Origin: a virus
Lineage: Duplodnaviria > Caudoviricetes
Length of the DNA: 64,000 bases
Strand: one strand, 5' to 3'
Virus record (IMG/VR): IMGVR_UViG_3300011337_000444
Coordinates: 6,383-70,382 of that record
Shown here piece by piece: positions 187-60,104 of the stretch; positions within the stretch are counted from its first letter, which is position 1; each line of letters opens with the position of its first letter. Both the position numbers and the translations under genes were made by a program. The notes under the pieces are model-generated. The model had not been told where the DNA came from. It ran no database searches and saw nothing but the letters and a program-made list of their open reading frames with translations.

Positions 187-414
187 ATGAATGAATTAGA
201 AGAAAAAGTAATAAGTAGGTTGCACAATTTGAGTACGGAAAACCAACTATCAAACGAATGTTTAGTGCAAATAATTGAAGTATGTGGTTTATATTTGAAC
301 CTTTGTACAATAAGTAAATACGCAAAGGATAATAACATGAGTTATAACGGTGTTAAAAATCATAGAGAAGTAAAGAATATTTTAGGAGTTAAATTTGTTA
401 TTGATAATGATTAG
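187..414 (+). CDS. Small hypothetical protein, possible HTH DNA-binding protein
   Basis: 75 aa; TISKYAKDNNMSYNGVK resembles a short HTH. Confidence 0.55.
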   Translation: MNELEEKVISRLHNLSTENQLSNECLVQIIEVCGLYLNLCTISKYAKDNNMSYNGVKNHREVKNILGVKFVIDND

Positions 415-415
415 T

Positions 416-769
416 ATGGAACAGAAACTAAAAATAATAGATGAGATTGTAAAGTTGCATCCATCTTTAGGAGTAGATAAAGGTTGGAGTTATTATACAG
501 GAGGAATAAAAGATTCTGGGGATTGGTATTTAAGAAAAATGTTAGATGTATCAATAGATGAATTGCAATTGTTTTTAGATAATATAAACCAAAAAACTAC
601 TACTTTTAATAATACAGTAATAGATGATGTTTTAGAAATACAGGTAAATGGAGTAAATTTTAAAATGAAAAAATCTGAACAAGAAGCCTTAAATGAATTT
701 TATAATAAATCAGAAATACACGCCATAGAACATTGGTATAAACTCATCAATACACAATTAGAAAAATGA
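416..769 (+). CDS. Hypothetical protein
   Basis: ORF 395..769; ATG at 416 directly after the previous stop is the likelier start; overlaps the next start. Confidence 0.65.
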   Translation: MEQKLKIIDEIVKLHPSLGVDKGWSYYTGGIKDSGDWYLRKMLDVSIDELQLFLDNINQKTTTFNNTVIDDVLEIQVNGVNFKMKKSEQEALNEFYNKSEIHAIEHWYKLINTQLEK

Positions 770-2832
770 TTGATTACGTAAAAAAAATGCAGTCTTTAGG
801 TTTTAGTGTATTCCCACTAAACACAAAGAAGGAGCCTAACTTCAAGAAGGGAGGAGAGATAAACAGTTATTCATGGATGGACTTTAATGTAAAGACTAAT
901 CCATTTCCTATAACAGAGAATACCGAAAGTAATTTTATTTTCTTAGGTATAGGATGTGGGGATATGAGTAATAACTTAGAGGTTATTGATGTTGATAGCA
1001 AGTATGAGTTGGATCAAGACCTATGGGGAGAATTTAAAGTATTGTTGCAGGATAATTTAGAGGTTTTTGATAAATTGTGCATCGTGCAGACTGTTTCCAA
1101 AGGATACCACGTTATGTACTACTGTGATACTATACAGGGAAACCAAAAGTTAGCGCAAAGGTATCTTTCAAGAGATGAAAAAAACGCTCACTACGTTAAA
1201 CTTACACAAGAAGATAAGATTGATAAGGAAAAAGCTAAAAACCAAGCACAAACAAAGAAACTTACCTTAATTGAAACTAGAGGGCAGGGAGGATATGTTG
1301 CTACGTATCCAAGTGAAGGTTACACAATTATCCAAGGCTCAATGGAAACAATACCTACCATAACTTCCGAAGAGAGAGATATAATCATGTGCTGCGCAAA
1401 AGCAATGGATTTAATTGAAGAAGAAAAGGTAGAAGAAAAGAAAGTTGCTTTGCCGGTATGGGAAGAAGGAAAAAAACCTTGGGAAGCGTATAATGAACAA
1501 ATGAGTGCAGAGGATATGGCTAGTTTATTTGTTTCTAATGGTTACACAATTCCTTTACGAGTAAAAGATAGGATATACATCAAACGCCCAGGAGGTAAAT
1601 CACAGTCAGGTAATATTCGTATTCACGATAAAATTTTTGTAGGTCACTCTAGTAATATACCTTTTGAACCACAAAAAGGATATAGTGCATCAGGTGTATT
1701 TACCATGTTAGAATGTAACGGAGATTTTTCACTTGCAGGAAGAAAGTTACTTGAAATGGGTTTTGGAGATAAACCAAAGAAGAAGCTATCAAATGATTTT
1801 GAGATTTTATCGGAGAAGTTTGAACCGGATAATTACGTAGCTAAAGTAAACTCCAATAGAGATACTATTGAAAAATTCCTACGTGGCGAATTTGGTATGG
1901 GATTACCTACTGGTTATGAATTACTAGATGAATATTATAGATTTAAGTTAGGTAAGTTTGATGTATTCTTAGGACATGAAAATATTGGTAAATCAACTGT
2001 TTTGTGGAATATGATGGTAGTAGCGAATGTGCTACACAATTGGAGAGGGATTATTTATTCAACAGAAAATGATCCATGGGTAATACAAAAACAAATGATG
2101 GAGTTTTTAGTAGGTAAGCAAATGAGTTTGTTTACAGAAAATGAAAAGGAACTCGCTTATAAATGGTTTGATGAAAATTTTGTGATTATTGATAATGAAA
2201 AACTTTTATCGTATAATCAAATTACGCAGGTAGCAGAATCATTTTTATTAAAAAAAGAATACCACGTACTAATGATAGACCCATACAATACCTTATCCTA
2301 CAATTGGGAAGGATTGGATAGAAGAATGGGTACACATGAATATCATCACCACGTGGCTACACAATTCAAACAATGGACAAAAAACATGAATTGCAGTATA
2401 TGGTTATCTATGCACCCTATTACAGAAGCAATGAGAGTGGTAGAAACAACTGGTGAATTTAAAGGTATGCGTAAACCTCCTATTTCTTCACACGCAGAGG
2501 GTGGTGGTAAATGGGTAGCTAAAGCAGATAACTTTATTGTATTACATAGATACACTAAACACGCAACTATGAGGAACATTACATTTTTTGATGTCCAAAA
2601 GGTTAAAGAAACATTTACAGGCGGTAAACCAATGATTGAAGGTAGTGCTTTTAAAATGACTTTAACGAATTACGGTGGCTTTGTTGGGTTTTTTGATGAA
2701 AAAAATTCTTGCCCTTTGCAAGGAATATTCAGAAAAAGATTTATCTTTGGAGAGCAAACAGAAATTCCCAATGATGAACAACCAAGAAGTAGATTATCCA
2801 AATGGTCAGACGACATAAAAGCCCCATTCTAA
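766..2832 (+). CDS. Bifunctional primase-polymerase (Prim-Pol) fused to a DnaB/RecA-type helicase
   Basis: N-terminal LEVIDVD, TVSKGYHVMY and IETRGQGGYV Prim-Pol motifs; C-terminal Walker A GHENIGKST, Walker B LMIDPYN, then LSMHP and ADNFIVLHR. Confidence 0.88.
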   Translation: MIDYVKKMQSLGFSVFPLNTKKEPNFKKGGEINSYSWMDFNVKTNPFPITENTESNFIFLGIGCGDMSNNLEVIDVDSKYELDQDLWGEFKVLLQDNLEVFDKLCIVQTVSKGYHVMYYCDTIQGNQKLAQRYLSRDEKNAHYVKLTQEDKIDKEKAKNQAQTKKLTLIETRGQGGYVATYPSEGYTIIQGSMETIPTITSEERDIIMCCAKAMDLIEEEKVEEKKVALPVWEEGKKPWEAYNEQMSAEDMASLFVSNGYTIPLRVKDRIYIKRPGGKSQSGNIRIHDKIFVGHSSNIPFEPQKGYSASGVFTMLECNGDFSLAGRKLLEMGFGDKPKKKLSNDFEILSEKFEPDNYVAKVNSNRDTIEKFLRGEFGMGLPTGYELLDEYYRFKLGKFDVFLGHENIGKSTVLWNMMVVANVLHNWRGIIYSTENDPWVIQKQMMEFLVGKQMSLFTENEKELAYKWFDENFVIIDNEKLLSYNQITQVAESFLLKKEYHVLMIDPYNTLSYNWEGLDRRMGTHEYHHHVATQFKQWTKNMNCSIWLSMHPITEAMRVVETTGEFKGMRKPPISSHAEGGGKWVAKADNFIVLHRYTKHATMRNITFFDVQKVKETFTGGKPMIEGSAFKMTLTNYGGFVGFFDEKNSCPLQGIFRKRFIFGEQTEIPNDEQPRSRLSKWSDDIKAPF

Positions 2833-2874
2833 TACGTACACAATTAATCTTAATATAAACTAAATCTAAATGTT

Positions 2875-3543
2875 ATGGCTAGAGGAAATCAGCAAACAGA
2901 CAATTACGCTAACTTATATGTGAAGTTAGTAGGCTTGAAAAAAGGAAGCAAGGAGTGTTTCTTTGAGTTTAAGAAAAAAGATGGCGACAAGTATGTTGTT
3001 ATCGAAAATAATAACGCCTTTGATGGTGGTGTTGAAAAAATCGGTTACAAAGAAATCGAAGTAGAGGGTAAGAAAAAACCTGTACTAGAGATTATCTTAC
3101 GTGATGATTTTGCACAGGAAAGATACTTATTAAACTTAGGTATGACTAACGTATCAAGACAATTAATTTCATGTTTAACTACTGCTGATAAGATTGAATC
3201 TTTATCGTTTTGGACAAAGATGGGTGATGCAGGTTTCCCAGTATTTGTAACTAAAGCAAATGGTAGTAATGATAAACTACAATGGGGTTTAGATATGAAG
3301 GCATTAACCGAGAAGTATGTAACTGAACATAAAATCGCAGGAGATATTATTCGTGATTATACTGAATTGGATAAATACTTATTAGGAACTGTGTTACCTA
3401 CGGTTATCGAAAAAGTAGTTGGTTTACCTAAAGCAAGTATAATGACCGCAAAGGATCCTATTGAGCAAGTAACTAAACCTGATATTTACAAAGCATCAGA
3501 GGAATCTTCTTACGAGGAAGAGGATGGTGATTTACCATTTTAA
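2875..3543 (+). CDS. Putative single-stranded DNA-binding protein
   Basis: Follows the helicase; beta-rich N-terminus and acidic tail ending EEEDGDLPF. Confidence 0.65.
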   Translation: MARGNQQTDNYANLYVKLVGLKKGSKECFFEFKKKDGDKYVVIENNNAFDGGVEKIGYKEIEVEGKKKPVLEIILRDDFAQERYLLNLGMTNVSRQLISCLTTADKIESLSFWTKMGDAGFPVFVTKANGSNDKLQWGLDMKALTEKYVTEHKIAGDIIRDYTELDKYLLGTVLPTVIEKVVGLPKASIMTAKDPIEQVTKPDIYKASEESSYEEEDGDLPF

Positions 3544-3558
3544 TTAAATTTTTAATAG

Positions 3559-3649
3559 TAGCGTACCTTCGGGATGTCAGGCTTCACATGGTAAAATCTT
3601 GTGTACAGAGAAAGAAGCCCTTAGCAAACTTAATACCTACGCTATTTTT
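3559..3649 (+). ncRNA. Candidate structured RNA / multi-branched terminator after the SSB-like gene
   Basis: Outer stem TAGCGTA/TACGCTA, cUUCGg hairpin, inner stem GGCTTC/GAAGCC, then a T-tract. Confidence 0.4.
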
Positions 3650-3669
3650 ATTCATACACAATTAGCAAA

Positions 3670-4071
3670 ATGACAAAAGAAAAGGCACTAGAAATTTATA
3701 TGGGTAGCTTCAAGGATGCTAAACAAACCCATTTTGAGTTCATTTGGGGAGTAATACACTCAACGAATAAAGAACAAGATTACAGAATCTTTGTTGATGA
3801 TTTTAATTCGATATTAGAAAGGAATTTCAAGTATGCGGATGTAAAAGCTCAAAGACAATTCAAATCACTTAGAAAAGCAGGATATACAGCCGAAGATGAT
3901 TTAAAAGTATTTAAAGCATTAAGGGATGATAGTTTCCATATGGAATCAGATTATAAATACTGTACTCCCGAATACATTTCTAGGATGAATATCTATGAGA
4001 AATACCGTAATCAATACAGAGAAGAAAAGAAAATAGATTTAAAAAAAGTAATAGGTAATCCATTTAAGTAA
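3670..4071 (+). CDS. Hypothetical protein resembling the conserved C-terminal domain of phage replication proteins
   Basis: GYTAEDDLKV...KYCTPEYISRMNIYEKYRNQ resembles the Phg_2220_C-type pattern. Confidence 0.45.
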   Translation: MTKEKALEIYMGSFKDAKQTHFEFIWGVIHSTNKEQDYRIFVDDFNSILERNFKYADVKAQRQFKSLRKAGYTAEDDLKVFKALRDDSFHMESDYKYCTPEYISRMNIYEKYRNQYREEKKIDLKKVIGNPFK

Positions 4072-4072
4072 T

Positions 4073-5293
4073 ATGAAAAAATATAACGTACTATCTGCCT
4101 TCAACGGAATGAGTTGTGGATATATTGCCTTATCTGAATTAGGATTTGATATTAATAAATATTACATTTCCGAAGTTGATAAACACGCAAATAAAATAGC
4201 GGAATTGATTTATCCTGAAAGTATCTTTTTAGGCGATGTTAGAAAAATTGATGTAGCACAATTAGAAACGATTGATATTGTATTAGCAGGTTTTCCTTGT
4301 ACCGATTTATCCTTTGCAGGTAAAAAATCAGGATTGATTTGTGAGGGATTGGATGAATATATGGAACTAAGGGAGGAATACCTACAAACTAATGATGAAA
4401 ACCTTTATTTTTATAACGGTAAATTCCAACAGTCAATTTTGTTTTATGAGTTTCTACGTATTTGGAATGATGTAAAGAAAATTAATCCTAACGCATTGTT
4501 TTTAGTGGAAAATGTAAAAATGAAACAAACAGAGGAATTAAAGATTAGTAAGTTATTAGGTATGCACCCAATTAGTATAAACGCTAAATTAGTAAGCGCA
4601 CAATCACGAGATAGATTATTTTGGACTAATATTGCTAATAAGCCTTTAGGTATGTTTGGAGATATTTATATTGATATTCCACAACCTAAAGATAGAGGGA
4701 TTTATTTAAAGGATATTTTAGAGGACCAGGTGGATGAAAAGTATTTTTTGAGTGAGAAAATTGTACAAGGATTTTTAAAGCACAAAGAAAGGCATAAGGA
4801 AAAAGGTAACGGTTTTGCTTTTGAGCCGAAAGATGTTATGCAGAAATCTAACACGTTAAAAACAATGGAGGGTAAAAGAAACACAGATACCTACATCAAA
4901 ATTGACAAAAAAGGTAATATTAAATCAAATCAGGATAAAGCAAGTTGTTTTACAGCAGGTGGAAATAGTGGAGGAAATCACTCTGATATGGATTTAATCA
5001 TAACCCACAACCTACAACCACGTTCGGGTAAAGGTAAAGGCGGTAAAGGGCATTTAAGTAAAACCGATCAAAAAAGTTATTGTTTGGATACTGGAAATAG
5101 TCAAGGTTTGGAGATAATTGGTAAATCCAACATCCGTAGATTAACCCCACGCGAAGCAGGAAGATTACAATCAGTACCAGAACCTATTTTGGATTTAATG
5201 TTAAGTAGCGGTGTAAGTGATACGCAACTCTATCGTTTGTTCGGGAATGGGTGGTGTATAGAGGTTATTAAACACATTTTAAATTTTATATAA
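4073..5293 (+). CDS. C5 cytosine DNA methyltransferase
   Basis: Motif I VLSAFNGMSCG, catalytic AGFPC, ENV, QSRDRLFW, RRLTPREAGRLQ and FGNGW. Confidence 0.93.
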   Translation: MKKYNVLSAFNGMSCGYIALSELGFDINKYYISEVDKHANKIAELIYPESIFLGDVRKIDVAQLETIDIVLAGFPCTDLSFAGKKSGLICEGLDEYMELREEYLQTNDENLYFYNGKFQQSILFYEFLRIWNDVKKINPNALFLVENVKMKQTEELKISKLLGMHPISINAKLVSAQSRDRLFWTNIANKPLGMFGDIYIDIPQPKDRGIYLKDILEDQVDEKYFLSEKIVQGFLKHKERHKEKGNGFAFEPKDVMQKSNTLKTMEGKRNTDTYIKIDKKGNIKSNQDKASCFTAGGNSGGNHSDMDLIITHNLQPRSGKGKGGKGHLSKTDQKSYCLDTGNSQGLEIIGKSNIRRLTPREAGRLQSVPEPILDLMLSSGVSDTQLYRLFGNGWCIEVIKHILNFI

Positions 5294-5294
5294 C

Positions 5295-5876
5295 ATGAAA
5301 AAAACAGTACAAGTTGATTTCTCTGGCGGAGAATTTATCATCAAATTTAGAAAGATTGATGAACTACAAGAAAAAGTAGATTTATTAAGAAACAGTTTAA
5401 AGCGAGAAGCAAACACAATTAGAGGTATTTTAAACGAATACCACAACACAGATGTAGAGGTTAACGGTAGAGAAATAACTTACAGCGAAGTATTATCCGA
5501 TAACGCTAAACGTTTAATCCATAACAGTAGCCAAGTTACTAATAACTTAGAGCTGATGGAAATTGAAGTTATGCGCCCTAAAGTAGATTACTTTGAAAAG
5601 ATAGTACAATGGGGTAAGGATAAAGGGATATTAGATCATGGAACGGTGGCTATGCAATTCGCTAAAATAATCGAAGAAGTAACCGAACTAGGCGAAGGTA
5701 TAGAGAATGAATCCACAGAAGAGATAGAGGATGCAATCGGTGATATAGTTGTCGTATTAACGCTCTTATCTAAAATGTGTAATATGAATATCGAAGATTG
5801 CATAAAGAGTGCTTACAATGTAATTAAGAACAGAACCGGTCGAATGGAGAATGGACAGTTTCTAAAAGATAAATAA
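5295..5876 (+). CDS. MazG-like NTP pyrophosphohydrolase domain protein
   Basis: C-terminal QFAKIIEEVTEL...EIEDAIGDIVVVL all-alpha EExxE/ExxD pattern. Confidence 0.85.
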   Translation: MKKTVQVDFSGGEFIIKFRKIDELQEKVDLLRNSLKREANTIRGILNEYHNTDVEVNGREITYSEVLSDNAKRLIHNSSQVTNNLELMEIEVMRPKVDYFEKIVQWGKDKGILDHGTVAMQFAKIIEEVTELGEGIENESTEEIEDAIGDIVVVLTLLSKMCNMNIEDCIKSAYNVIKNRTGRMENGQFLKDK

Positions 5877-6488
5877 ATGAGAACTAAAATAAACATGGTA
5901 GGCAAAACCTATGGAAAATTACTAATACTTGAAGAGGTTAAAGAAAGAGATAGCTACGGATATATTTTATACAAATGTAAATGTTCCTGCGGTAAAGAAA
6001 AAATAATTCGAGGTCACAATATAAGGTCAGGAAACTCTTTATCGTGTAGTTGTTCGAGGATTCAACCAAACTTAAAGCACAATATGTCATATACTGCAGA
6101 ACATAACGCATGGAGAAGCATGAAGAAAAGGTGTAAGAATAAAAACGATCCAAGATATGAAGATTACGGAGGAAGAGGAATAAAGGTTTGTGATAGATGG
6201 ATTAATTCTTTCGAAAACTTCTTCGAAGATATGGGTTATAAACCAAGTAAAAGCCATTCCATTGAAAGAATTAATAACGATGGCGATTACGAACCTTCAA
6301 ATTGTATTTGGGCTGATGTTAAAACACAAGCTCGTAATAAGAGAACTTCTATGAAAATTTTATACGAAAACAAAATTATAGATATTTTTTTATTTAGTGA
6401 AATAATGAACTTATCTGTGTCGGGAGCTAAGAAACGTATTTTTAGAAATTACAAACTCACTGATGGAATATATTTGAAATATAAATAA
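5877..6488 (+). CDS. Free-standing HNH-type homing endonuclease
   Basis: YKCKCSCG, YGGRGIKVCDRW and SIERINNDGDYEPSNCIWA are typical of phage HNH endonucleases. Confidence 0.85.
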   Translation: MRTKINMVGKTYGKLLILEEVKERDSYGYILYKCKCSCGKEKIIRGHNIRSGNSLSCSCSRIQPNLKHNMSYTAEHNAWRSMKKRCKNKNDPRYEDYGGRGIKVCDRWINSFENFFEDMGYKPSKSHSIERINNDGDYEPSNCIWADVKTQARNKRTSMKILYENKIIDIFLFSEIMNLSVSGAKKRIFRNYKLTDGIYLKYK

Positions 6489-6521
6489 AATCTATAAATA
6501 AAAGTTTTAATATAAATAAAT

Positions 6522-6551
6522 AAAATAGGTTTTCTTAGGGGAGCCTATTTT
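6522..6551 (+). terminator. Intrinsic terminator
   Basis: AAAATAGG...CCTATTTT stem after the HNH gene. Confidence 0.6.
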
Positions 6552-6574
6552 AGTTTAATAAATTTGATAAAAAT

Positions 6575-7696
6575 ATGAATATGAAAGATTTTCCAAAGGA
6601 ACTTGCACACTTAGAGAAGTACGATAAATACTGCAAAAAACTAAAAGAAGGAGTATATGGCTTCTTTATTAATCAGTTTAATGAGGATGGTACAAAAAAT
6701 CCAGACTGGTATGAGTTTAGAGTAAACACATTAGGCGCATCAGAAACCGCAACCGCTTGTGAAGGTGGGTACGATGAATACGGAGTACGAGCAAAATTAT
6801 TTTGGAGTAAGATAGGTAAAAAGTTTCCCGAAATTAAATCTAAATTTACTTTTTGGGGATTAGAATTAGAAAAAAATGTTGCCAACGCATGGGAATATTA
6901 TGATGCTACACCCGAAGGTTATATTGATAACAGATATGCAGGACAAAAGGTACGTAATTACCAAGAATTAAATTGTTATGCAATTAACATTAAATACCCT
7001 TACCTATCCGCTTCATTTGACTTCTTAGTACCCGAAGGGCAGGTTAACCCATTTACAGGTGAGATAATTGATTTCTCATACCCTTTAGAGATTAAAACTA
7101 TTTCAACTGCTGCTGCTGAAAAATACGAATTAGGTTTGCCGGTAAGATATATTTTCCAAACGCACCAACAAATGATTATTTGGGAGGTAGATTACTGTGA
7201 AATTGGCGCACTTAAAGGAGGTACTGATTTTGAAGTTTATCCTATTTACATGAATGAGGGTATTAAAGAAATGGTATTAACTGAAACTAAACAGTTTTGG
7301 GATTTGGTTGAAACTGCGCGCCCTATCTATTACGAATTAGAGTTTTGCTTTGATGAAAAGAAAAAGGAAGAGTACGTTGCACAATTAGATGCTTTAGAAC
7401 CTTCACCAGAACAAAACAAAGGCTACGAAGACTTTTGGAAGGAGAAGTACAGAGAAACTAGCGAGAAAAAAGAAAAGCAAGGAAACGAAGAGGATTGGGC
7501 TATTGCTGTTGGGTACAAAAAGATATTGGATCAAGAGAAGGAATTATCCGATAAAAAACAATTGTACAAAAACAATTTGCTTTACACAATGAAAGATTGT
7601 GAAGAATTAACCTTTGGTGAGAATGGTAGAGTAGTACACCGTAACCACGAAGGTAGTAGAACTTATTTTGGAGTAAATATTAAAAACTATAAATAA
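6575..7696 (+). CDS. YqaJ/lambda-exonuclease-like recombination nuclease
   Basis: LGASETA, WGLELE, LSASFDF, LEIKT and YIFQTHQQM motifs. Confidence 0.85.
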   Translation: MNMKDFPKELAHLEKYDKYCKKLKEGVYGFFINQFNEDGTKNPDWYEFRVNTLGASETATACEGGYDEYGVRAKLFWSKIGKKFPEIKSKFTFWGLELEKNVANAWEYYDATPEGYIDNRYAGQKVRNYQELNCYAINIKYPYLSASFDFLVPEGQVNPFTGEIIDFSYPLEIKTISTAAAEKYELGLPVRYIFQTHQQMIIWEVDYCEIGALKGGTDFEVYPIYMNEGIKEMVLTETKQFWDLVETARPIYYELEFCFDEKKKEEYVAQLDALEPSPEQNKGYEDFWKEKYRETSEKKEKQGNEEDWAIAVGYKKILDQEKELSDKKQLYKNNLLYTMKDCEELTFGENGRVVHRNHEGSRTYFGVNIKNYK

Positions 7697-8406
7697 TGAA
7701 AGAGAAAGACTTTAACAACAATTACTTAAAGGTTAAACAAAGGATTATTAACCTTAAAGAAAAAGGCGAATGGAATGTTTCAGTAGAAACAGATGTAATC
7801 AAACTTGATACAAGATTAGATGTTGCAGGAAAGCCGAAGCTATTCGCTATTGTAAAGGCGAAGTTAACCATAAACGGAATTGTGTATGAAGCACACGCAC
7901 TAGAAATAGAAGGCGTTGGTGATGTAAACTATGTACATTTCCTAGAAAACGCAGAAACTTCTGCTGTTGGTAGAGCAATGTCGTTTGCAGGTATTCCAGA
8001 AGAGGGAGTTTCAATGGATGATTCAAATGTAGCTACTAAAGAGGATATAGAATCCGCTAAAGAGCAAGTAAAGGATATTAATGCAGAGAAACGTAAGGAA
8101 GTTGCTAAAAAACTAATGGAAGAAGCTTTATCTAAGAAGCAATTAAAGTTAGATGTTACACCTGAACCAAAAAAGGAGGTTGCACAATTAGTAATACCTG
8201 TCTTCAAAGAAGTAACAGGAACTATAAGAGAGAAGAAAGATAGAGAAGAAGTAATCGCATGGTTACGTAAGGTAGGTAAGTTTGATGAAAACTTATTGAT
8301 AGGCGCAATGATTAAAGCTGAAATTTCTGTGAAGTTTAAATCATTTAATGATTTATTACACAAAGGAAGCTACAATGATTTATTAACTGTTTTTAAACAT
8401 TTGTAA
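7696..8406 (+). CDS. Rad52/Sak-like ssDNA annealing protein
   Basis: FLENAETSAVGRAM signature; adjacent to the exonuclease. Confidence 0.7.
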   Translation: MKEKDFNNNYLKVKQRIINLKEKGEWNVSVETDVIKLDTRLDVAGKPKLFAIVKAKLTINGIVYEAHALEIEGVGDVNYVHFLENAETSAVGRAMSFAGIPEEGVSMDDSNVATKEDIESAKEQVKDINAEKRKEVAKKLMEEALSKKQLKLDVTPEPKKEVAQLVIPVFKEVTGTIREKKDREEVIAWLRKVGKFDENLLIGAMIKAEISVKFKSFNDLLHKGSYNDLLTVFKHL

Positions 8407-8407
8407 T

Positions 8408-8815
8408 ATGGATGCTTTTAAACAAGAAAGATATAGAATGAATCAAGAGTATTATACACAATTAGCTAAATCAGGTAAATTCAACGAACTACCTAGCACT
8501 TGTGAATTTAGCGAACCAGTTAAGCTTTTAGTAAGTAACTTATATAGTAGTGAAAAGAAAGAAGCTTTGATTATTGGTAAATTAAAAGGTAGATTTTTTG
8601 AAGCTAACTTCCAAAATTGGCAAATTGCTTATACAATACAAGAACCTACTGAACATAAAGTAGGTGATGTGGTTGAAGTAGAAACAGAAAGCTTTGGATT
8701 CTTTTTCGGTATGATACACACTATAAATCAAAGAGGAGTTATCATAAGTTTTGGTAAACAATCAGGTACTTTAAGAATGATAACTGATATTAAATCAATT
8801 AAAAAACTAAAGTAA
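8408..8815 (+). CDS. Hypothetical protein, paralogue of the C-terminal half of 9575..10375
   Basis: YTQLAKSGKFNELPSTCEFSEPV versus YTQLAKEGRFGELPETCEFSEPV. Confidence 0.7.
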   Translation: MDAFKQERYRMNQEYYTQLAKSGKFNELPSTCEFSEPVKLLVSNLYSSEKKEALIIGKLKGRFFEANFQNWQIAYTIQEPTEHKVGDVVEVETESFGFFFGMIHTINQRGVIISFGKQSGTLRMITDIKSIKKLK

Positions 8816-11366: not shown

Positions 11367-11367
11367 A

Positions 11368-51412: not shown

Positions 51413-51537
51413 AAATTGTGTATTAAAAATAGGGGCTGTTGTTCCACCAATCAAGGGTGTTAATAATTTGAGTTGTACACCTCGCCTCAACAACGTTAAC
51501 CAAATTCCCCTATTTTGTTTTTTAAATTGTGTAGCGT

Positions 51538-53014: not shown

Positions 53015-53695
53015 TTACACAATTCGCTTACCATAAACGTGCTCCATATAAACCATGTACTCAATAGTACCATTGATACTTATCTTCTTTACACAATTAG
53101 GCTTTGTAATTATAACCTCTCCTACCTGCAAATCCTCATTAGGCTTTATTGCCTTTACTCGGTAATACTTATCGCTCTTCTTCTTTGTATCCAATAACAA
53201 TATTCGCTCACTCTTCAAATACTCCTCCTCAATAGGCTCCACCAATAACCACCTGTCTATCGCCTCCAAACGGTCGTTGCACAATTTGAGATAGAAATTC
53301 GTAACACTAAACAAATTATAATCCACCTTATAAGGTAACATATAGTAATATTCGCCTCCTATCTCAACTCGGTTATCAGGATCACACATACTGTGATGTA
53401 CATAACAAATATCCCCAGCTACTATATCAACACTAATAGGTGTCCTGCCCTCACTTACCCTCCGAGGTACTTGCACAATTTCACACTTGAAACATATATT
53501 CCTAATCTCATCAGGTATATAATCAGCTGTCATAACACTATACAACATATCCTTCATCAACTTTACCTCCTTACCATCCCCATCCTTTATCACCCATCCA
53601 TCACTCTCATCATTTATCGCCCTCACCAATACCATATCCCTCGGTACAACTATACCGCTCACATCCGTTATTCCCTGTAATACACTTAAATCCAT
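53015..53695 (-). CDS. Tandem GroES/Cpn10-like co-chaperonin
   Basis: Two halves each match Cpn10: RDMVLVRAI...DIVAGDICYV..VEIGGEYY and DRWLLVEPIEEE...LQVGEVII...ISINGTIEY. Confidence 0.65.
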   Translation of the reverse strand: MDLSVLQGITDVSGIVVPRDMVLVRAINDESDGWVIKDGDGKEVKLMKDMLYSVMTADYIPDEIRNICFKCEIVQVPRRVSEGRTPISVDIVAGDICYVHHSMCDPDNRVEIGGEYYYMLPYKVDYNLFSVTNFYLKLCNDRLEAIDRWLLVEPIEEEYLKSERILLLDTKKKSDKYYRVKAIKPNEDLQVGEVIITKPNCVKKISINGTIEYMVYMEHVYGKRIV

Positions 53696-53726: not shown

Positions 53727-53758
53727 CAAAGCTAATCATTATATCTCTCAATCACAAA
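53727..53758 (-). promoter_or_regulatory. Leftward sigma70 promoter (-33 TTTG, 20-nt spacer, -7 TAGCTTTG)
   Basis: Full Bacteroidota consensus, 32 nt upstream of 53695. Confidence 0.7.
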
Positions 53759-53763
53759 AAAAA

Positions 53764-53920
53764 CTTGTATCCATACGGTGGAACAATGAGACTAACCTAC
53801 TGTAAATCAATTATATAAAAAATTGTGCCTCCTCACTTTTTTTACACCATTATCGCCCCTACCTCTACATCCCAGTAAATACGTTATCACACACCAAAAA
53901 TCTTGTATCCATACGGTGGA
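53764..53920. repeat. Two perfect 19-bp direct repeats CTTGTATCCATACGGTGGA
   Basis: Copies at 53764..53782 and 53902..53920, each containing TCCA-N5-TGGA dyad symmetry. Confidence 0.85.
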
Positions 53921-53987
53921 GAAAGTTGACTTTACCATTGATTATCAAATACTTACAAAATCACACCTAAATTTATTTTCAACTTTA

Positions 53988-54019
53988 TTTGCACATATTA
54001 TCCCCCATACATACCTTTG
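53988..54019 (+). promoter_or_regulatory. Rightward sigma70 promoter (-33 TTTG, 20-nt spacer, -7 TACCTTTG)
   Basis: Full consensus; no ORF until 54599. Confidence 0.6.
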
Positions 54020-54598: not shown

Positions 54599-54952
54599 AT
54601 GGGCTTTGATAAAGATTTAACGGGAAAATTCGCAATTAAATATAGTAAATCGCATTGCATCCAATTACATAAACACTTAACAGAAAAGCGCATAAGTAAA
54701 TCGCATCTTTGTTTTATTCTCGATGTATCAGCAACAGAAACAGCAACACGATTAATAAACACTCCGTATAAACTTACTTTACAGCAATTAATTAATTTAT
54801 CTTTTGCCCTTAATCTTTCTTTAGCTGATTTAGTATTGGTTATTACGGAAGATTTTAAAAATTGTGCATCAACCTTTGATCCTGATTTAATTAATTTTGT
54901 TCCGCCTCATTTACGAGAACTAACTAAATCTAATGAATGGTTTGATCGTTAA
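54599..54952 (+). CDS. XRE/Cro-like HTH regulator
   Basis: ISKSHLCFILDVSATETATRLINTPYKLTLQQLINLSFALNLSLADLV. Confidence 0.65.
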   Translation: MGFDKDLTGKFAIKYSKSHCIQLHKHLTEKRISKSHLCFILDVSATETATRLINTPYKLTLQQLINLSFALNLSLADLVLVITEDFKNCASTFDPDLINFVPPHLRELTKSNEWFDR

Positions 54953-55133
54953 GCTAATTGTGCAACGTCCTTTTTTTGCCAGTATTACGCCTTTTTTAAA
55001 ATTGATCCTTTTTTTTTGCGCTTAATATTTGCGCTTTTTTCTTTGTAATCCTTTTTTTTATAAATTAATATAAAAATTTTCTCATTGATTTTCAAGTAGT
55101 TACAAAAAACTTTAAATTTTTCTTTGATTTTAT

Positions 55134-55165
55134 TTTGATATATCCAAAGTATATACATATCTTTG
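55134..55165 (+). promoter_or_regulatory. Early sigma70 promoter (-33 TTTG, 20-nt spacer, -7 TATCTTTG)
   Basis: Full consensus, 50 nt upstream of 55215. Confidence 0.75.
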
Positions 55166-55214
55166 TTTCATCAAGTTAAACAAACAATAATTTAACCTTT
55201 AAAATTTAAAAATC

Positions 55215-55652
55215 ATGAAAAATCAAACAAAAGTAATCAGTAACATTAATGCAAATAAAAACCTTTTAAAAAGCATTAATCAATCATTTTACGGTAATGA
55301 TTTAAACGAAAAAATACAAATGTTTATTGACAATGCAAATAGGTACATTAAAGCAATTGAGGAAAAGCGCGTCTTTTGTATCATTTATAAAGTATCTGCA
55401 AGCGGAATGAGTAGAAATTTAGCCTTTTTTGAACATAGTTTTAACGCTAAGTATAAACAAGGCAATATATATAATTTTCATTGCTTGTTTAAATCTTTTG
55501 GATATACAGAAGCTAGAGAAGGTTTTAGGATTAACGGTTGCGGAATGAATATGGTATTCCATACTAATTATAGTATTATACATCAATTGAATAGTTTGGG
55601 CTTTAATATGAATTGTCCAGTCTTAGCACAAAGCACGCCTTCAACTTTTTAA
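55215..55652 (+). CDS. Conserved phage early protein of unknown function
   Basis: KVSASGMSR...INGCGMNMVF pattern. Confidence 0.7.
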   Translation: MKNQTKVISNINANKNLLKSINQSFYGNDLNEKIQMFIDNANRYIKAIEEKRVFCIIYKVSASGMSRNLAFFEHSFNAKYKQGNIYNFHCLFKSFGYTEAREGFRINGCGMNMVFHTNYSIIHQLNSLGFNMNCPVLAQSTPSTF

Positions 55653-55765
55653 ATTCGTCTAAGCGAATTAAAAAAGGCTTTTAAGCTTAGAGCGTTTACA
55701 TGGGTATTAAAAGCCCATGTAAGGTAGCAAATAACAAATTGTATAATCTTTAAAATTTAAAAACT

Positions 55766-56047
55766 ATGTTGATCTTAAAAATTGAATTACAAAACACTAT
55801 ACATACCATTGAAAAAATAAATGGTGCCTACTTAGTAGAGAGTAAATTTACTGACGATGCGAGTAGTGGAGAGGTATTCGAGTATAACTCACTACTGGAG
55901 GCGCAAAATCATGTAAACAACGAAATTAAGGAATACACTCGATTAATGGATAATTTGCATAATACTTTGCTTTTAGCCTTAAACTACTCTCAAAGGTTAG
56001 GTTTAGATATTAGTGCAGATATTAATGGGCTACTGGATAACTTTTAA
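55766..56047 (+). CDS. Hypothetical early protein
   Basis: AT-rich leader TTTAAAATTTAAAAACTATG. Confidence 0.7.
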   Translation: MLILKIELQNTIHTIEKINGAYLVESKFTDDASSGEVFEYNSLLEAQNHVNNEIKEYTRLMDNLHNTLLLALNYSQRLGLDISADINGLLDNF

Positions 56048-56080
56048 AAAAATTGTGTAACAACCTTAAATTTTAAAAAT

Positions 56081-56275
56081 ATGGAAACTATTAAAGCAAC
56101 TCCCAATTATTCAAAAAAAACCTTTACAATTCGCAAATTTGAGGGTAAAAAATTAGTAAGTAAATTCAAAACTTTTGCGCTAGATAGCGAAAATTTTAGT
56201 ACTGGATTATACATGACTACAAATGACTGGCAATTTTTCTTAAAGCATAACCAAAATTATAAATTAATAAAATAA
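56081..56275 (+). CDS. Hypothetical early protein
   Basis: 64 aa, same leader type. Confidence 0.65.
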   Translation: METIKATPNYSKKTFTIRKFEGKKLVSKFKTFALDSENFSTGLYMTTNDWQFFLKHNQNYKLIK

Positions 56276-56280
56276 AAAAA

Positions 56281-56442
56281 ATGCAAGAAATAAAAACAAC
56301 TTTAGCAGGTTTAAAAAAGCAAAATTTAAAAACCTTTATTGTATTGAAAAACAAAACTCAATATATTTTAAAGGCGCAAAATTTAATACAAGCCGAGCGC
56401 CTGGCTTTTATTTATGGCGCGGAAATAATTAAACAACTTTAA
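56281..56442 (+). CDS. Small early protein (not in the ORF track)
   Basis: MQEIKTTLAG...GAEIIKQL, 53 aa, fills the gap between genes. Confidence 0.55.
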   Translation: MQEIKTTLAGLKKQNLKTFIVLKNKTQYILKAQNLIQAERLAFIYGAEIIKQL

Positions 56443-56453
56443 AATTTAATATC

Positions 56454-56699
56454 ATGAAAAATTACAAATTAAATTTAACTGACTGTCAACAAATAATTGA
56501 TAAATATGTTGAATATGGCGGGTATATTGAGCAAATTAATGAGGGATGTTTAGGATTAGGATTTTTAATCTTACATGGCGCGCCGGGAAAAAAAAGTATA
56601 ATAATTCAGGAATATTTTATAAATAGTTGGCAAAGTGGGCACAACGTTAAAATGTACAACAAATTACCTAAAAAATACCAAAAATTAATTAACAACTAA
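56454..56699 (+). CDS. Hypothetical early protein
   Basis: 81 aa; IQEYFINSWQSGH. Confidence 0.7.
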   Translation: MKNYKLNLTDCQQIIDKYVEYGGYIEQINEGCLGLGFLILHGAPGKKSIIIQEYFINSWQSGHNVKMYNKLPKKYQKLINN

Positions 56700-56759
56700 A
56701 TTTAAAGCCCCTCTGGGGGCTTAATTAAACAAGTATAAACAACTTTAAACTTTATAGCC

Positions 56760-58070
56760 ATGAACACAAACAACAAACATTTAATAAAAGCAGCGCAAAA
56801 AAGCAAAGTTTTAAACTTTAATGGTAAGTATGCTTTATACGTTAAAAATGAGGTTCAATTTTTAACGCCCTCTAATACTGGTAAATTTGTAAACGGTAAC
56901 TTTGTTAATGATCCTAGTATTGAGTTGACAGATTTTGAGGTGCCTATTCCTAATTGTGCACCCATCTTAGAGGGGCAAAAATTGGAGGAACTAAAGCCAT
57001 GGATTAAAAAAGCTTTTAATTTTGTTGGCAAAGATGATTTGCGACCTGTTATGAGTGGCGTTTTAATCGATAAAAATTGTATCGTTGCAACTGATGCCCA
57101 TATTTTATATAAAAAACAATTTGAACACGAAATTTCAAACGAAAATATAATATTAAACGCGCTTACTTGCCAATTAATAGATGATGTAAAGGCTATTTAC
57201 AAACTTGATGAATCTAAAAACAAATTTATTGCTTTGCTTAATTGCGGAACTATTATAACATATTGCAATATTCAAGAAAAATATCCTAATTACAATGCAG
57301 TAATACCAACGGAATTTGATGGTAGTTTTACTATAAATTGTGTATCCACCGAATTTAAAGATGCTTTGAAATTAAATAATAGAGTAATGCCTACTTTAGC
57401 CTTTAATACCGAAATAAATAAAGCGTATTGGCAAAATGTAGATAATGGATTAAGCGGAGAGTTTGACATTAAAGATGGTAAAAATAAAAGTTCAAATGAA
57501 TTAATTATGCTTATGTGCATAATGGTAAAAGAATTTAAGAATTGTAACATAGGTTTTAATCAAAAATTTATAGATAAAATAAGCAAAGTTACAAAGCAAA
57601 ATGATTTAGTTTTAAACTACAAACCAAACAAACCAACAGTAATTTATATTTCTGAAACAACAAACAAACCAACTAAAACCAAAAAAGTTATGCAAGAAAA
57701 ACCAAAACAAAGCGTAGATACTGATATTTTATCCGCTTTAATGCAACAAATTAACGCCTTATCTCTGCAAGTAGCCGAGCTAAAAAATCAACAAATTAGC
57801 ACCCCGAAAAATGAAATTGAACCTATTAAAAAGAGTGCAAAAATTGAGGAACAAAAGCCGATTGAAACGGTTAAACCAATTATCCACGTACAACAGTATT
57901 CCGATAAAAGTTTAATCGTTTATGGCGATACAAAACAAATAAAGGATCAACTAATGCAATTACACGCTCGTTTTAATCCTTACCTAAAACTTAATGATGT
58001 TAAAACGCCTGGCTGGATTGTATCGGTAAAACATGAAGGGGCTATTAATCAAATTGTGCAAGCATTATAA
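56760..58070 (+). CDS. Protein with a DNA polymerase III beta-clamp-like region and a C-terminal YSDKSLIVYGDTK domain
   Basis: KDDLRPVMSGVLID...IVATDAHIL...EKYPNYNAVIP matches the beta-clamp domain II-III signature. Confidence 0.7.
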   Translation: MNTNNKHLIKAAQKSKVLNFNGKYALYVKNEVQFLTPSNTGKFVNGNFVNDPSIELTDFEVPIPNCAPILEGQKLEELKPWIKKAFNFVGKDDLRPVMSGVLIDKNCIVATDAHILYKKQFEHEISNENIILNALTCQLIDDVKAIYKLDESKNKFIALLNCGTIITYCNIQEKYPNYNAVIPTEFDGSFTINCVSTEFKDALKLNNRVMPTLAFNTEINKAYWQNVDNGLSGEFDIKDGKNKSSNELIMLMCIMVKEFKNCNIGFNQKFIDKISKVTKQNDLVLNYKPNKPTVIYISETTNKPTKTKKVMQEKPKQSVDTDILSALMQQINALSLQVAELKNQQISTPKNEIEPIKKSAKIEEQKPIETVKPIIHVQQYSDKSLIVYGDTKQIKDQLMQLHARFNPYLKLNDVKTPGWIVSVKHEGAINQIVQAL

Positions 58071-58128
58071 ATTTACAGCCCCTCCGGGGGCTAAACTAAA
58101 CAAGTATAAACATTTAAAATAAATAACC

Positions 58129-58278
58129 ATGAAAGCAATTGAAATTTTACAAAACATTAAAGAGAATGGCGGATTTGACAATTTTAGAAATTGGACACGC
58201 AAAGAAAAAAAACAATGGGTAAAGGCAAATTTCCCTTGTTCCGATTATGTAGCAGATAAAGTAAGCTATTCAATTTAA
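58129..58278 (+). CDS. Small early protein (not in the ORF track)
   Basis: MKAIEILQNIKENGG...KVSYSI, 49 aa, between two hairpin repeats. Confidence 0.6.
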   Translation: MKAIEILQNIKENGGFDNFRNWTRKEKKQWVKANFPCSDYVADKVSYSI

Positions 58279-58329
58279 CTTTACAGCCCCTCTGGGGGCT
58301 TAATTAAACAACTTTAAAACTTAGAAACC

Positions 58330-58866
58330 ATGCAAAAAGTAAACAAATTTAGAAAAACAGTTGCTCTACAAGTAATTGAAGAAAAAAGGCGAATTAATAG
58401 AGTAATGCTTGAAATTATAGGAGCCGTTAAAACCGTAGAATACAAAAACTTTACGCCTCCAGTTGGTGAACAAATTAAAGCTAAAAATTCAATATTCGTT
58501 TACTTAGCAGATAGCTACAAATATAATAGTAGCTACGGTATTACTCACAATGTAACTCCCATTGATGGAAATGAGCGACCGATTAAAAAGTGTATTGAAT
58601 TGGATTATTACAATTATGTTACTGTATTAAACAATTTTAAAATTAATCTAGGTAGCATTGAACAATACCACAAAAAAAATCTGTATGATATTTTTATCCC
58701 TAAATTTAATTCAGGTGCTAATAAGGAACTCTATACCAAATTGTGCATTGATATTTTTAACGATGCTGCAAAGGAATTACAAGCTTATAGAGTTGAAAAA
58801 CAAAAGCTGGTTGATGATGCGTTTATGTTCCACTTTGGTTTTTATGTTAATAGGGCTTTTTATTAA
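58330..58866 (+). CDS. Hypothetical early protein
   Basis: 178 aa, repeat-derived leader. Confidence 0.7.
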   Translation: MQKVNKFRKTVALQVIEEKRRINRVMLEIIGAVKTVEYKNFTPPVGEQIKAKNSIFVYLADSYKYNSSYGITHNVTPIDGNERPIKKCIELDYYNYVTVLNNFKINLGSIEQYHKKNLYDIFIPKFNSGANKELYTKLCIDIFNDAAKELQAYRVEKQKLVDDAFMFHFGFYVNRAFY

Positions 58867-58896
58867 GGAAATTGTGTAACTTTAATAAAAAAAACT

Positions 58897-59067
58897 ATGG
58901 CAAACTTTGACGAAAAACTACAAATCGCTTCCGTACTTGCAGCAGAGGATTATTTACTTACAACTATTGAGGAAATGGAAAACGTAAAAACAATTGGCGC
59001 AAAGCGTAATTACATTTACGAAATTACCCTATACGAATTAATAAAAAACTTTGTAAACTTAAACTAA
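58897..59067 (+). CDS. Small early protein (not in the ORF track)
   Basis: MANFDEKLQIAS...KNFVNLN, 56 aa. Confidence 0.55.
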   Translation: MANFDEKLQIASVLAAEDYLLTTIEEMENVKTIGAKRNYIYEITLYELIKNFVNLN

Positions 59068-59068
59068 A

Positions 59069-59251
59069 ATGATAACTGAAAACCAATTATTCAATCCAAA
59101 ATTAGTATCTATCCAAAAGGATTATATTAAAGTTGTAAACTGTATTGTATCCTGTAAAACACTAGATCAACAAATCAACGCAGAAAAAATGAAGGAATTT
59201 TTTAAGCGTAAACATATTACTAATCCGTTTTATTCAAAATTTCAATTTTAA
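59069..59251 (+). CDS. Hypothetical early protein
   Basis: 60 aa, coupled to the previous ORF. Confidence 0.55.
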   Translation: MITENQLFNPKLVSIQKDYIKVVNCIVSCKTLDQQINAEKMKEFFKRKHITNPFYSKFQF

Positions 59252-59254
59252 GCT

Positions 59255-59428
59255 ATGATAATATATGCGAGCTTGGTAAATATACCACTAGATGAACTAA
59301 AGCGAAAATACACGCCTTTAAATGCCGAATTAACAATAAAGGAAGTGCAGGAACTTGCACAATTAGTAAAAATCAAAACAAACAAACTATGGGAACTAAT
59401 CGAATCAAAAACAATATTGTTTCAGTAA
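59255..59428 (+). CDS. Small early protein (not in the ORF track)
   Basis: MIIYASLVNIPL...KTILFQ, 57 aa. Confidence 0.45.
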   Translation: MIIYASLVNIPLDELKRKYTPLNAELTIKEVQELAQLVKIKTNKLWELIESKTILFQ

Positions 59429-59505
59429 TAGAAACTGTTTACTTATATGCAATACTAGTTATTGTGTGGGTAAATTGTGTATCAATCTTTAAGAAAAAAT
59501 AAGCT

Positions 59506-59796
59506 ATGGAAAATTATCAGGAATACAAAAAGATAAAAGGCGAAATTGATGCAGTACTGGATACTTTGCATGATCGACTTAATTCATTCCCTAAATCTAG
59601 TTTAGGTGGTGTAACAGATGAAGTTAGAAAAACGCCTGAATATATAGAAACTAAAAGGCAATGGAATAAATACTGGTCCTTGTTAAGATCCATTAATCAA
59701 ATTGGCGTGAAAAAGTTTAAAAAGGAAATCCAAAAGGAATACCAAGATAAAATAAATGCTGCCAATAAAAAACACAAAGAAAATTTAATAAAATAA
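59506..59796 (+). CDS. Hypothetical early protein
   Basis: LNSFPKSSLGGVTDEVRKTPEY pattern. Confidence 0.7.
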   Translation: MENYQEYKKIKGEIDAVLDTLHDRLNSFPKSSLGGVTDEVRKTPEYIETKRQWNKYWSLLRSINQIGVKKFKKEIQKEYQDKINAANKKHKENLIK

Positions 59797-59797
59797 C

Positions 59798-60010
59798 ATG
59801 GCTACACAATTAGACTACGTGGTGGAACTAGAAAAGCAAACAAAAATACTAAGTAGGCTAAGGATTGAAAAGGAACAATACATTAACGCCCCTAAATACG
59901 TTCGTAATTCAAATGAATATATCCTGTTCATGCTAGAATACCAACGAACATTTTTTAAGGTGGCACAGATAAAAAAAATACTTAAAAATAAATATGGGTA
60001 TGAAGAGTAA
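59798..60010 (+). CDS. Hypothetical early protein
   Basis: 70 aa, coupled to the previous ORF. Confidence 0.6.
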   Translation: MATQLDYVVELEKQTKILSRLRIEKEQYINAPKYVRNSNEYILFMLEYQRTFFKVAQIKKILKNKYGYEE

Positions 60011-60104
60011 AATTGTGCATCAACCTTACACAAATTTTATCAACATAGTATATATTTACTAGATTTATTGTATATATTTACACACAATTTTAAACTTTAA
60101 TTTT

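Follow-up and report, generated by a model that had tools for sequence, protein, structure and literature searches.

Domain IV of DnaA binds as a monomer to an asymmetric 9-bp box. When DnaA occupies a dnaA box, as at asnC, RNA polymerase is blocked, and the title of the 1989 paper refers to an active orientation (Schaefer and Messer 1988, 1989, cited in PMC10950094). Stoperators of mycobacteriophages lose their effect on reversal (PMC9283540). Here we describe a short asymmetric word that recurs across the genome of a marine, Flavobacteria-type phage in two opposite orientation classes, and compare it with these systems. The window, i.e., the whole stretch of DNA that was analyzed, comprises 64,000 nucleotides of a 70,382-bp contig. 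Positions refer to the window unless the contig is named.

The word AATTGTGYA in a phage clade

The first-pass annotation had listed 35 copies of an 11-mer, AATTGTGYAWC, and every one of them is an exact match; copies at 18185, 28992 and 38990 had been overlooked, which brings the count to 38 in the window (42 in the whole contig). Dinucleotide shuffles gave 0.41 ± 0.62 copies with a maximum of 2, and Markov models of orders 0 to 3 predicted 0.30 to 0.54 copies (1.5 at order 4). The enrichment, put at over 100-fold, is thus borne out and is stronger than noted (38 against ~0.4 expected). The core of the word is the 9-mer AATTGTGYA. The window has 87 copies of it (3.19 ± 1.77 expected) and the 70.4-kb genome 96, about one per 730 bp. 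Additional matches to the 9-mer only had been estimated at about 40; they exist and number 49. The single-mismatch neighbors of the 9-mer, pooled, are not enriched (65 vs 64.6 from composition), and the extended consensus reads c-w-AATTGTGYAWC-m-w-y-C. The spacing of the 9-mer copies is Poisson-like at ~0.7 kb, and no cluster was found anywhere in the genome, the densest regions holding 3-4 copies per 400 bp.

Most copies (>80%) lie inside ORFs at uniform positions, and 16 of the 96 are intergenic. The word occurs in several reading frames and just past stop codons, as had been observed. Synonymous-codon shuffling within genes left 14.1 ± 2.1 copies, 8 of which are the untouched intergenic ones. 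The same word was found in five related IMG/VR phages and in one JGI contig (L224). All 63 aligned sites are kept in the relative G001, and among sites with identical amino acids the DNA word is kept at 41 of 41 in G002 and 20 of 20 in G003, against backgrounds of 0.46 and 0.295, respectively. Sense copies are kept although they force a Cys codon in 14 of 23 cases. The word is absent from phages of related hosts. It is thus a lineage-specific, selected word that is kept across the core genome of a phage clade. Its survival in the Markov and codon-shuffle controls and its synonymous-site conservation uphold the proposal that the signal is one at the DNA level and not a by-product of codons or peptides. 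Neither the control for codon and dipeptide usage nor synonymous conservation in relatives, both set beforehand as points on which the word might fail, speaks against it.

The word was compared with several known elements. A host mark resembling Chi, KOPS or uptake sequences had been suggested, but no enrichment of the 9-mer was seen in 406 genomes of Flavobacteriaceae, a single family that may not be the host's: counts ranged from 8 to 218 per genome, roughly as for the reversed control, and the highest was 218 in 4.7 Mb, ~1 per 20 kb. The parS sites are palindromic, about 16 bp long and confined to a few copies close to the origin or par locus; the suggested parS-like mark does not agree with an asymmetric word in 96 unclustered copies. 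The canonical DnaA box TTWTNCACA was rejected, as the word differs at positions 1-2 (position 2 is mostly G) and has three further invariant bases (AAT); canonical boxes themselves are not enriched (13 vs 11.9 expected). An origin-type cluster of DnaA boxes with an unwinding element does not fit an unclustered word with 3-4 copies per 400 bp at most. Bacteroidota sigma-A promoters have a -33 TTTG and a -7 TAnnTTTG element, 17-23 bp apart, and lie in sense orientation upstream of genes. The word was rejected as such a promoter because upstream conservation is absent, the copies are mostly intra-ORF and antisense, and true consensus promoters lie elsewhere.

Orientation and layout of the copies

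The orientation of the word follows the class of transcription unit. With temporal classes (early vs the rest) deduced from the genes present and the arrangement of promoters, the ratio of sense to antisense 9-mers is 14:2 in the early operons, 7:23 in the replication block and 8:37 in the structural block (15:60 for all non-early units); i.e., in the two divergent early operons the word mostly reads with the genes, whereas in the replication and structural blocks it mostly reads against them. For the 11-mer, the ratios given in the first-pass annotation hold for 1-12 kb (5 reverse:2 forward) and the early block (7 forward:0 reverse), while that of the minus-strand block is 20:4 and not 17:4. 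The word had also been said to stay forward across the transcription switch at 54 kb, which is incomplete: when all 9-mers are counted, they are sense to either side of the divergent early promoters and antisense in the rest of the genome. Intergenic copies obey the same rule, and coding cost is therefore not its explanation. The pattern is repeated in G002, G003 and L224. About 20% of the copies break the rule, and these copies are conserved too.

The replication-module block (9-mer positions 221..11617, genes on the plus strand) contains 18 copies, 14 of them on the minus strand and thus antisense, and its upstream extension (contig 1-6382, outside the window) contains 9 further copies. This block encodes a Prim-Pol/DnaB-like primase-helicase (766-2832) and a RecE/YqaJ-like exonuclease (6575-7696). 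A 3.7-kb stretch (3664..7377) is free of the word, ~5 copies being expected at genome density; it holds the genes for a DNA methyltransferase (4073-5293), MazG (5295-5876) and an HNH endonuclease (5877-6488), the first and last of which lack an orthologue in G001. The lysis/structural block (9-mer positions 12194..48898, genes on the minus strand), which includes the portal (44469-46799) and large terminase (46843-48915) genes, contains 45 copies, 37 of them on the plus strand and again antisense. These are mostly embedded in codons, e.g., those for VAQL, DAQL, YTI and LHN.

The distal leftward operon beside the KilA-N gene carries five copies of mixed orientation (50310..51533), and a leftward promoter of host type (50615-50645) has the copy at 50628 in its spacer. 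A divergent pair of host-type promoters (TTTG-N17-22-TAnnTTTG) is located at 53727..54019, with the leftward one at 53727-53758 and the rightward one at 53988-54019, and sense-oriented copies extend outward from it in both directions. The first leftward gene (53015-53695) has four copies within 465 bp (53016..53480, minus strand), all sense; in relatives, this gene has four sense copies in G002 and three in G003. The rightward early operon has 12 copies (54860..60019), 10 of them on the plus strand and sense. Those at 54956, 56051, 58870 and 60011 start 0-4 nt from a stop codon, and three early rightward copies are located 27-33 nt ahead of the next ATG. Past the orientation switch, where the replication-side block begins, the first three copies (62304..63798) are all on the minus strand, antisense to plus-strand genes. 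The equivalent switch in L224 lies between 3069 and 3384.

The candidate reader and the possible role of the word

A 92-aa stand-alone DnaA domain-IV protein is encoded at contig 3903-4181, ~2.2 kb upstream of the window, in the replication module beside the gene of the primase-helicase. It matches Pfam Bac_DnaA_C (E = 7e-13, above the curated cutoff), and a PDB search returned DnaA chains only. A Foldseek search using its AF2 model (pLDDT 94.7) gave ten top hits that are all DnaA, including DNA-bound DnaA domains, with a best TM of about 0.8. The protein keeps the equivalents of R399, R405, R407, D433, H434 and H439. No PHROG family was found for it; stand-alone DnaA_C proteins form a large unannotated family of thousands of clusters, mostly 90-170 aa in length. 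The gene is found in G000-G003 and L224, and between domain-IV proteins that are only 36% identical the DNA-contact residues are kept and the word is unchanged. The reverse complement of the word, GWTRCACAATT, has WTNCACA in common with the DnaA box TTWTNCACA. Phages with homologues of the protein carry clustered iterons, ATCTGTAACCT, CGTGTGTAAT and AATGTGTACT, with TGTGTA-type or TGTAAC-type cores, as 6-11 repeats within about 270 bp in both orientations. Given these clustered sites, the homologues may bind origins and not act as transcription factors. The 92-aa protein would most likely be the reader of the word in this clade. It is a better candidate than the binders named previously (XRE, RHH, wHTH and a ParB-like domain), none of which has independent support.

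We tentatively favor the explanation that the copies are dispersed directional docking sites for the domain-IV protein, which would act on RNA polymerase in a stoperator-like manner. AATTGTGYA would be an asymmetric protein-docking site, placed about once per 730 bp over the core genome of the clade, at which the 92-aa protein would dock. From the opposite site polarity in the early operons and the other genes, we infer that the docked protein would act directionally on a DNA-tracking machine, most likely RNA polymerase. It would form a polar roadblock like the DnaA/dnaA-box complex and the stoperators of mycobacteriophages. Transcription of one temporal class would be stopped, while over the other class antisense or read-through transcription would be suppressed and its sense transcription would pass. 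RNA polymerase is the presumed target, and the orientation that blocks is likewise presumed. The mismatch to the canonical box, the clustered sites of the homologues, the ~20% of copies that break the rule, the near-equal fit of a replichore model and the mostly intra-ORF location of the copies all count against docking of this kind. A more far-reaching version, which we consider doubtful, is that an iteron of a DnaA-domain-IV-type binder spread from a local cluster over the core genome and became a ~100-site directional code written into codons, which would mark the DNA as the phage's own and whose orientation would tell RNA polymerase and/or the replisome which units to stop or pass, giving a genome-wide polar early-to-late switch.

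The main rival, which we regard as unlikely, keeps the docking sites, bound by the domain-IV protein and/or the primase-helicase, but assigns them to replication as dispersed initiator, helicase-loading or priming sites, with orientation marking fork direction. On this view the origin would lie near contig 66-67 kb, in a region of alternating orientations, and replication would terminate at 18.5 kb, where convergent genes meet. This replichore model mispredicts only ~4 more sites than the transcription-class model, and with two orientation switches it accounts for 73 of the 96 sites. The domain-IV gene adjoins the primase-helicase in the replication module, the homologues in other phages are near origin-like iteron clusters, the Poisson-like ~0.7-kb spacing is on the scale of Okazaki fragments, and the coding-strand GC skew is unusually low in the early rightward genes. 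However, the four sense copies of the first leftward gene, conserved in three lineages, contradict a single origin and terminus; moreover, a site cluster is absent genome-wide, GC3 skews fit no simple fork model, and known primases recognize about 3 nt rather than an exact 9-mer. Less probable still is that the word is read by host DnaA, as a decoy or titration array or a DnaA-dependent roadblock, or by another phage protein, the domain-IV gene being coincidental or having a separate anti-host role. The partial identity with the DnaA box (WTNCACA) is compatible with this, as is the presence of other small HTH proteins (an XRE-like protein and a weak wHTH match). Nevertheless, the invariant AAT extension and the rare T at box position 2 are foreign to known DnaA boxes, and contact residues kept in domain-IV proteins 36% identical, with the word fixed, also argue against it.

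Other readings do without a docking protein of this type. The word would be very unlikely to be the promoter core of a phage-modified or phage-encoded RNA polymerase, producing sense early transcripts and antisense ones over late genes. TAATTGTG is one mismatch from the Bacteroidota -7 box TAnnTTTG if the preceding base is T (47% of sites), and the three early copies 27-33 nt before an ATG are suitably placed, but a -33 element and conservation upstream of the word are both absent, the operons are already headed by good host-type promoters, and most copies are randomly placed in ORFs and point against the genes. Furthermore, no RNA polymerase gene was recognized, PHROGs being empty for the 2624-aa protein, and the all-or-none sharpness is unlike promoters. 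An RNA-level signal, either a cleavage or termination word in early mRNAs and antisense RNAs or an early RNA (AAUUGUGYA) pairing with late mRNA (URCACAAUU), would agree with the sense word in early transcripts and its complement in late ones, and with the several early copies directly past stop codons. It is nonetheless highly improbable: a candidate RNase and a structural context are both missing, 9-nt pairing in coding regions would be a weak regulator, and the antisense majority would act only on hypothetical RNAs. We give hardly any credence to the phage having copied a host-machine signal (Chi for RecBCD/AddAB, KOPS for FtsK, or a DNA uptake sequence). Such signals are sharp, dense, polar and randomly spaced as well, but there is no excess over the reversed control in the 5 + 401 genomes of Flavobacteriaceae, which may not be the host's family, and the phages of related hosts are without the word.

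Implications and comparison with known systems

If directional docking of the domain-IV protein is true, the word would provide the first case among Bacteroidota phages of a stoperator-like system of directional sites that spans the genome, and also the first in which the reader has the DnaA domain-IV fold. The early-to-late polar switch would be of a type not described outside actinobacteriophage stoperators, with an unrelated fold, and the phage would overlay a strict 9-bp code on ~1 codon triplet per 250, paying in forced Cys codons, for control of its programme. The proposal offers a testable function for the stand-alone DnaA_C family. The word can also serve as a marker for this uncultured clade, and its absence points to recently acquired genes. 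Should the transcription model prove wrong, the word would, by its sharpness and synonymous conservation, still be a clean target for binding assays.

Chi, KOPS and uptake sequences are likewise sharp, over-represented, polar and randomly spaced short words within genes, but they are words of the host genome with host machines as readers. The iterons of phage and plasmid origins resemble the word in the repeat cores linked to homologues; however, they are clustered in both orientations, whereas the word spans the whole genome with block-wise polarity. With the DnaA box, the word shares an asymmetric 9-bp site, WTNCACA and a monomeric helix-turn-helix reader, here a candidate. In contrast to DnaA, the phage protein has no domains I-III, and the phage sites are dispersed rather than origin-clustered. 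No lysogeny module was identified in this phage, and the sole recombinase seen is of the small serine resolvase type. The stoperators of Cluster A mycobacteriophages, read by the elongation-blocking L5 gp71-type immunity repressor of temperate phages, are 13 bp long with about 20-36 copies in short intergenic gaps or at stop codons and form one orientation class, whereas here a 9-bp core has 96 copies, >80% of them within ORFs and written into codons, in two opposite classes (early vs the rest); the candidate reader has another fold (DnaA domain IV) and the host belongs to another phylum. In both systems, however, many copies of one asymmetric word extend genome-wide, their orientation is correlated with transcription direction, some copies lie at stop codons, and the reader, here the candidate domain-IV protein, is a monomeric HTH protein.

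The word AATTGTGYA and its conservation

The 11-mer AATTGTGYAWC was found 38 times in the window, compared with 0.41 ± 0.62 copies in dinucleotide shuffles, and 42 times in the whole 70,382-bp phage contig, of which the window spans bases 6383-70382. Every start listed for it in the first-pass annotation was exact, and three sites (18185, 28992 and 38990) had been missed. The enrichment reported there outlasted two further controls. Markov models predicted 0.30–0.54 copies at orders 0–3 and 1.5 at order 4, against the 42 in the whole contig, and permuting synonymous codons within each gene left only 14.1 ± 2.1 copies, 8 of which are intergenic copies that this shuffle leaves alone. The underlying unit is a 9-mer, AATTGTGYA (the word), with 87 copies in the window (3.19 ± 1.77 expected) and 96 in the genome. 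All 26 single-base variants of the 9-mer together occur 65 times, against 64.6 from composition, and the word is therefore all-or-none. Flanking preferences are weaker than the core and give the extended consensus c-w-AATTGTGYAWC-m-w-y-C. The spacing of the copies is Poisson-like (mean 716 bp, CV 1.05), and their positions within genes are uniform. A literature search using the sequence of the word returned primer matches only.

The phage is of the podovirus type and is kin to the Flavobacterium 'elemo' and Cellulophaga phi38:1 (Pervagoviridae) phages, with only about 25–33% identity to them in the large terminase and portal. Five IMG/VR contigs fall in its clade (terminase identity 99, 92, 78, 78 and 74%); all five carry the word at equal density, with only 0–1 copies of the reversed control. 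In codon-level orthologue alignments with three of these relatives, the word was kept at 63/63 alignable sites in G001 (background 9-mer identity 0.57), 49/55 in G002 (0.28) and 27/50 in G003 (0.10). Where the amino acids are identical, 41/41 copies were kept in G002 (background 0.46) and 20/20 in G003 (0.295), as expected from the earlier proposal of a DNA-level rather than a codon signal. Sites also turn over, 13 being peculiar to G002 and 20 to G003. The word is genuine, under strong selection, specific to this clade and directional. The cultured relatives phi38:1 and MW202828 have no copy, and 80 loci of terminase-distant IMG/VR relatives hold 9 copies in 850 kb. No new lineage of the clade with a variant of the word emerged from a metagenome scan, and a search of bacterial genomes with the large terminase revealed no prophage or binned relative.

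Other repeats were seen among the relatives. Dense strand-specific 8-mers in two distant relatives, L146 and L166, were ruled out as analogues, being collagen-like coding repeats; the long Gly-X-Y repeat genes (L146:15127-18088 and L166:9467-14741) adjoin the terminase region and imitate strand-specific 8-mer enrichment. The first 50 kb of MW202828.1 (L023) contain the 16-bp perfect palindrome GTGTCGTTAACGACAC about 11 times, apparently a dispersed site of another, symmetric kind. In the first 50 kb of phi38:1 (L022), all 11 copies of TTGATAGTG lie on the same strand, and the sequence may act there as a promoter-type motif.

Long gaps without the word match non-conserved or exchangeable genes, namely a variable 564-aa gene, a tail-fibre region and a methyltransferase-MazG-HNH island (window 3664-7377, 0 copies). 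G001 lacks orthologues of the methyltransferase and HNH genes, and the island has the look of a recent arrival in which sites have yet to form. Because the word persists in G001 without these genes, the HNH endonuclease and the methyltransferase were rejected as its reader or nicking enzyme.

Gene layout and orientation of the copies

The replication module (contig 65-18,517) is transcribed rightward; the lysis, structural and terminase genes, followed by a short leftward operon (contig 18,461-60,077), are transcribed leftward; and an early operon starting at contig 60,981 runs rightward on into the replication module. Divergent consensus host-type promoters lie at window 53727 and 53988. Relative to local gene transcription, the 9-mers number 10 sense and 2 antisense in the rightward early operon, 4 and 0 in the first leftward gene, 7 and 23 in the replication block, and 8 and 37 in the lysis/structural block. 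This pattern recurs in G002, G003 and L224, an independent JGI contig with the word. Sense copies within ORFs force a Cys codon in 14/23 cases (NC[AV] or KLC), and coding cost was considered as the cause of the bias. However, intergenic copies obey the same block rule (sense:antisense 0:6 for the replication block, 4:2 for the early operon), and sense copies in the early genes stand in frames that impose Cys. Coding cost was therefore rejected as the explanation.

Several features of this region deserve mention in their own right. The first leftward gene (226 aa, window 53015-53695) has an extreme coding-strand GC3 skew of +0.62, and a Pfam search with it gave no match at E ≤ 0.01. A leftward consensus host-type promoter at window 50615-50645 contains a copy of the word (50628) within its -33/-7 spacer; binding of a protein to this copy would probably mask the promoter. 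In PHROGs, an early 436-aa protein (window 56760-58070) matched a RusA-like resolvase at E = 1e-12 and, at E = 3e-9, a DNA polymerase processivity factor; the protein may therefore be a fusion.

A stand-alone DnaA domain-IV protein as candidate reader

A gene 2.2 kb upstream of the window (contig 3903-4181, locus L021:3903-4181) encodes a 92-aa protein that matches Pfam Bac_DnaA_C (E = 7e-13, 48.8 bits, cutoff 31.5 bits). This family is domain IV, the part of DnaA that reads the DnaA box. A PDB sequence search returned DnaA chains only, and equivalents of E. coli R399, R405, R407, D433, H434 and H439 are retained. The AF2 model built from a 28-sequence alignment reached a pLDDT of 94.7 (a 6-sequence alignment gave a poor model, pLDDT 57). 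All ten best Foldseek matches of the former are DnaA, among them DNA-bound structures of its DNA-binding domain (3PVP, TM 0.81, rmsd 1.7 Å; 1J1V, TM 0.82). The protein has no PHROG family. Orthologues are present in G001, G002, G003 and L224; that of G003 is only 36% identical, yet both the VRAR and the HSSII(H) elements are retained in it. The reverse complement of the 11-mer, GWTRCACAATT, and the DnaA box TTWTNCACA have WTNCACA in common, a resemblance with an estimated chance of about 1%. The word differs from the canonical box, which is itself not enriched in this phage. The 92-aa protein is a plausible candidate reader of the word. Adjoining its gene, and conserved across the clade, is a small serine recombinase gene (contig 4907-5557, Pfam Resolvase E = 3e-31); no large integrase was seen.

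Short proteins consisting only of DnaA_C form a very large family, one member of which (P0014, 1680 aa) has 8 tandem domain copies. Homologues of the 92-aa protein are encoded at 80 IMG/VR loci. Several of these have local clusters of 6–11 repeats within about 270 bp with cores resembling the word: (a/c)ATCTGTAACCT in L231, L235 and L237 (L237:6665-6930), CGTGTGTAAT at L238:7372-7603 and AATGTGTACT at L250:4408-4693. A tight cluster of TATACCAACA lies at L267:19158-19429, in another phage that encodes a DnaA_C-like protein. The clusters are candidate origins or operators of these proteins. A dense genome-wide word is absent from the 80 loci, which show local iteron clusters at most, and the AATTGTGYA clade has no local cluster of its word. 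Most simply, an iteron-type site of the DnaA_C family would have spread over the whole genome in this clade.

Possible functions and known systems

We tentatively rank first a stoperator-like polar action on RNA polymerase, in which a monomeric reader would bind an asymmetric site and the sites would be oriented by transcription unit. The polar block would shut off one temporal class and suppress antisense or read-through transcription over the other. This reading is placed first because a monomeric reader and unit-oriented sites match two precedents. One is the DnaA/dnaA-box complex, a block to RNA polymerase, with an 'active orientation' named in the title of a 1989 paper (cited in PMC10950094). 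The other is the stoperators of mycobacteriophages, asymmetric 13-mers, >20 per genome, that are oriented with transcription and inactive if reversed (PMC9283540).

The main rival, to which we give a smaller though appreciable chance, assigns the same sites to replication, where they would bind an initiator or serve in priming or helicase loading. A replichore model that places its origin near 66-67 kb and its terminus at 18.5 kb gets 23 sites wrong, and a transcription-class model about 19-20. What separates the two is the sense cluster conserved within the first leftward gene, which the replichore model mispredicts, and the transcription reading is therefore favoured, only modestly. GC skew and GC3 skew, examined for fork direction, did not decide between them. 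It is rather unlikely that host DnaA or another protein is the reader, improbable that the word is a promoter core, and more improbable still that it acts as an RNA-level signal. A promoter of a crAss-like virion RNA polymerase was rejected, since the phi14:2 preprint reports no common early motif and the 2624-aa protein had no match in PHROGs.

Least probable of all is a Chi-like host signal. Chi-, KOPS- and uptake-type words need hundreds to thousands of copies. The first-pass suggestion of such a word found no support in Flavobacteriaceae, the only family covered by our counts and one outside which the phage's host may lie: five named genomes have 78–153 copies each, near the reversed control, and among 401 further genomes drawn from across the family the maximum was 218 copies in 4.7 Mb, none being far above its own control.

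Compared with the DnaA box, the word shares WTNCACA in its reverse complement, yet it is no canonical box. The closest known system is that of the stoperators, from which the AATTGTGYA system differs in the size and number of its sites, their location within codons, the presence of two orientation classes, the protein fold of the candidate reader and the host phylum.
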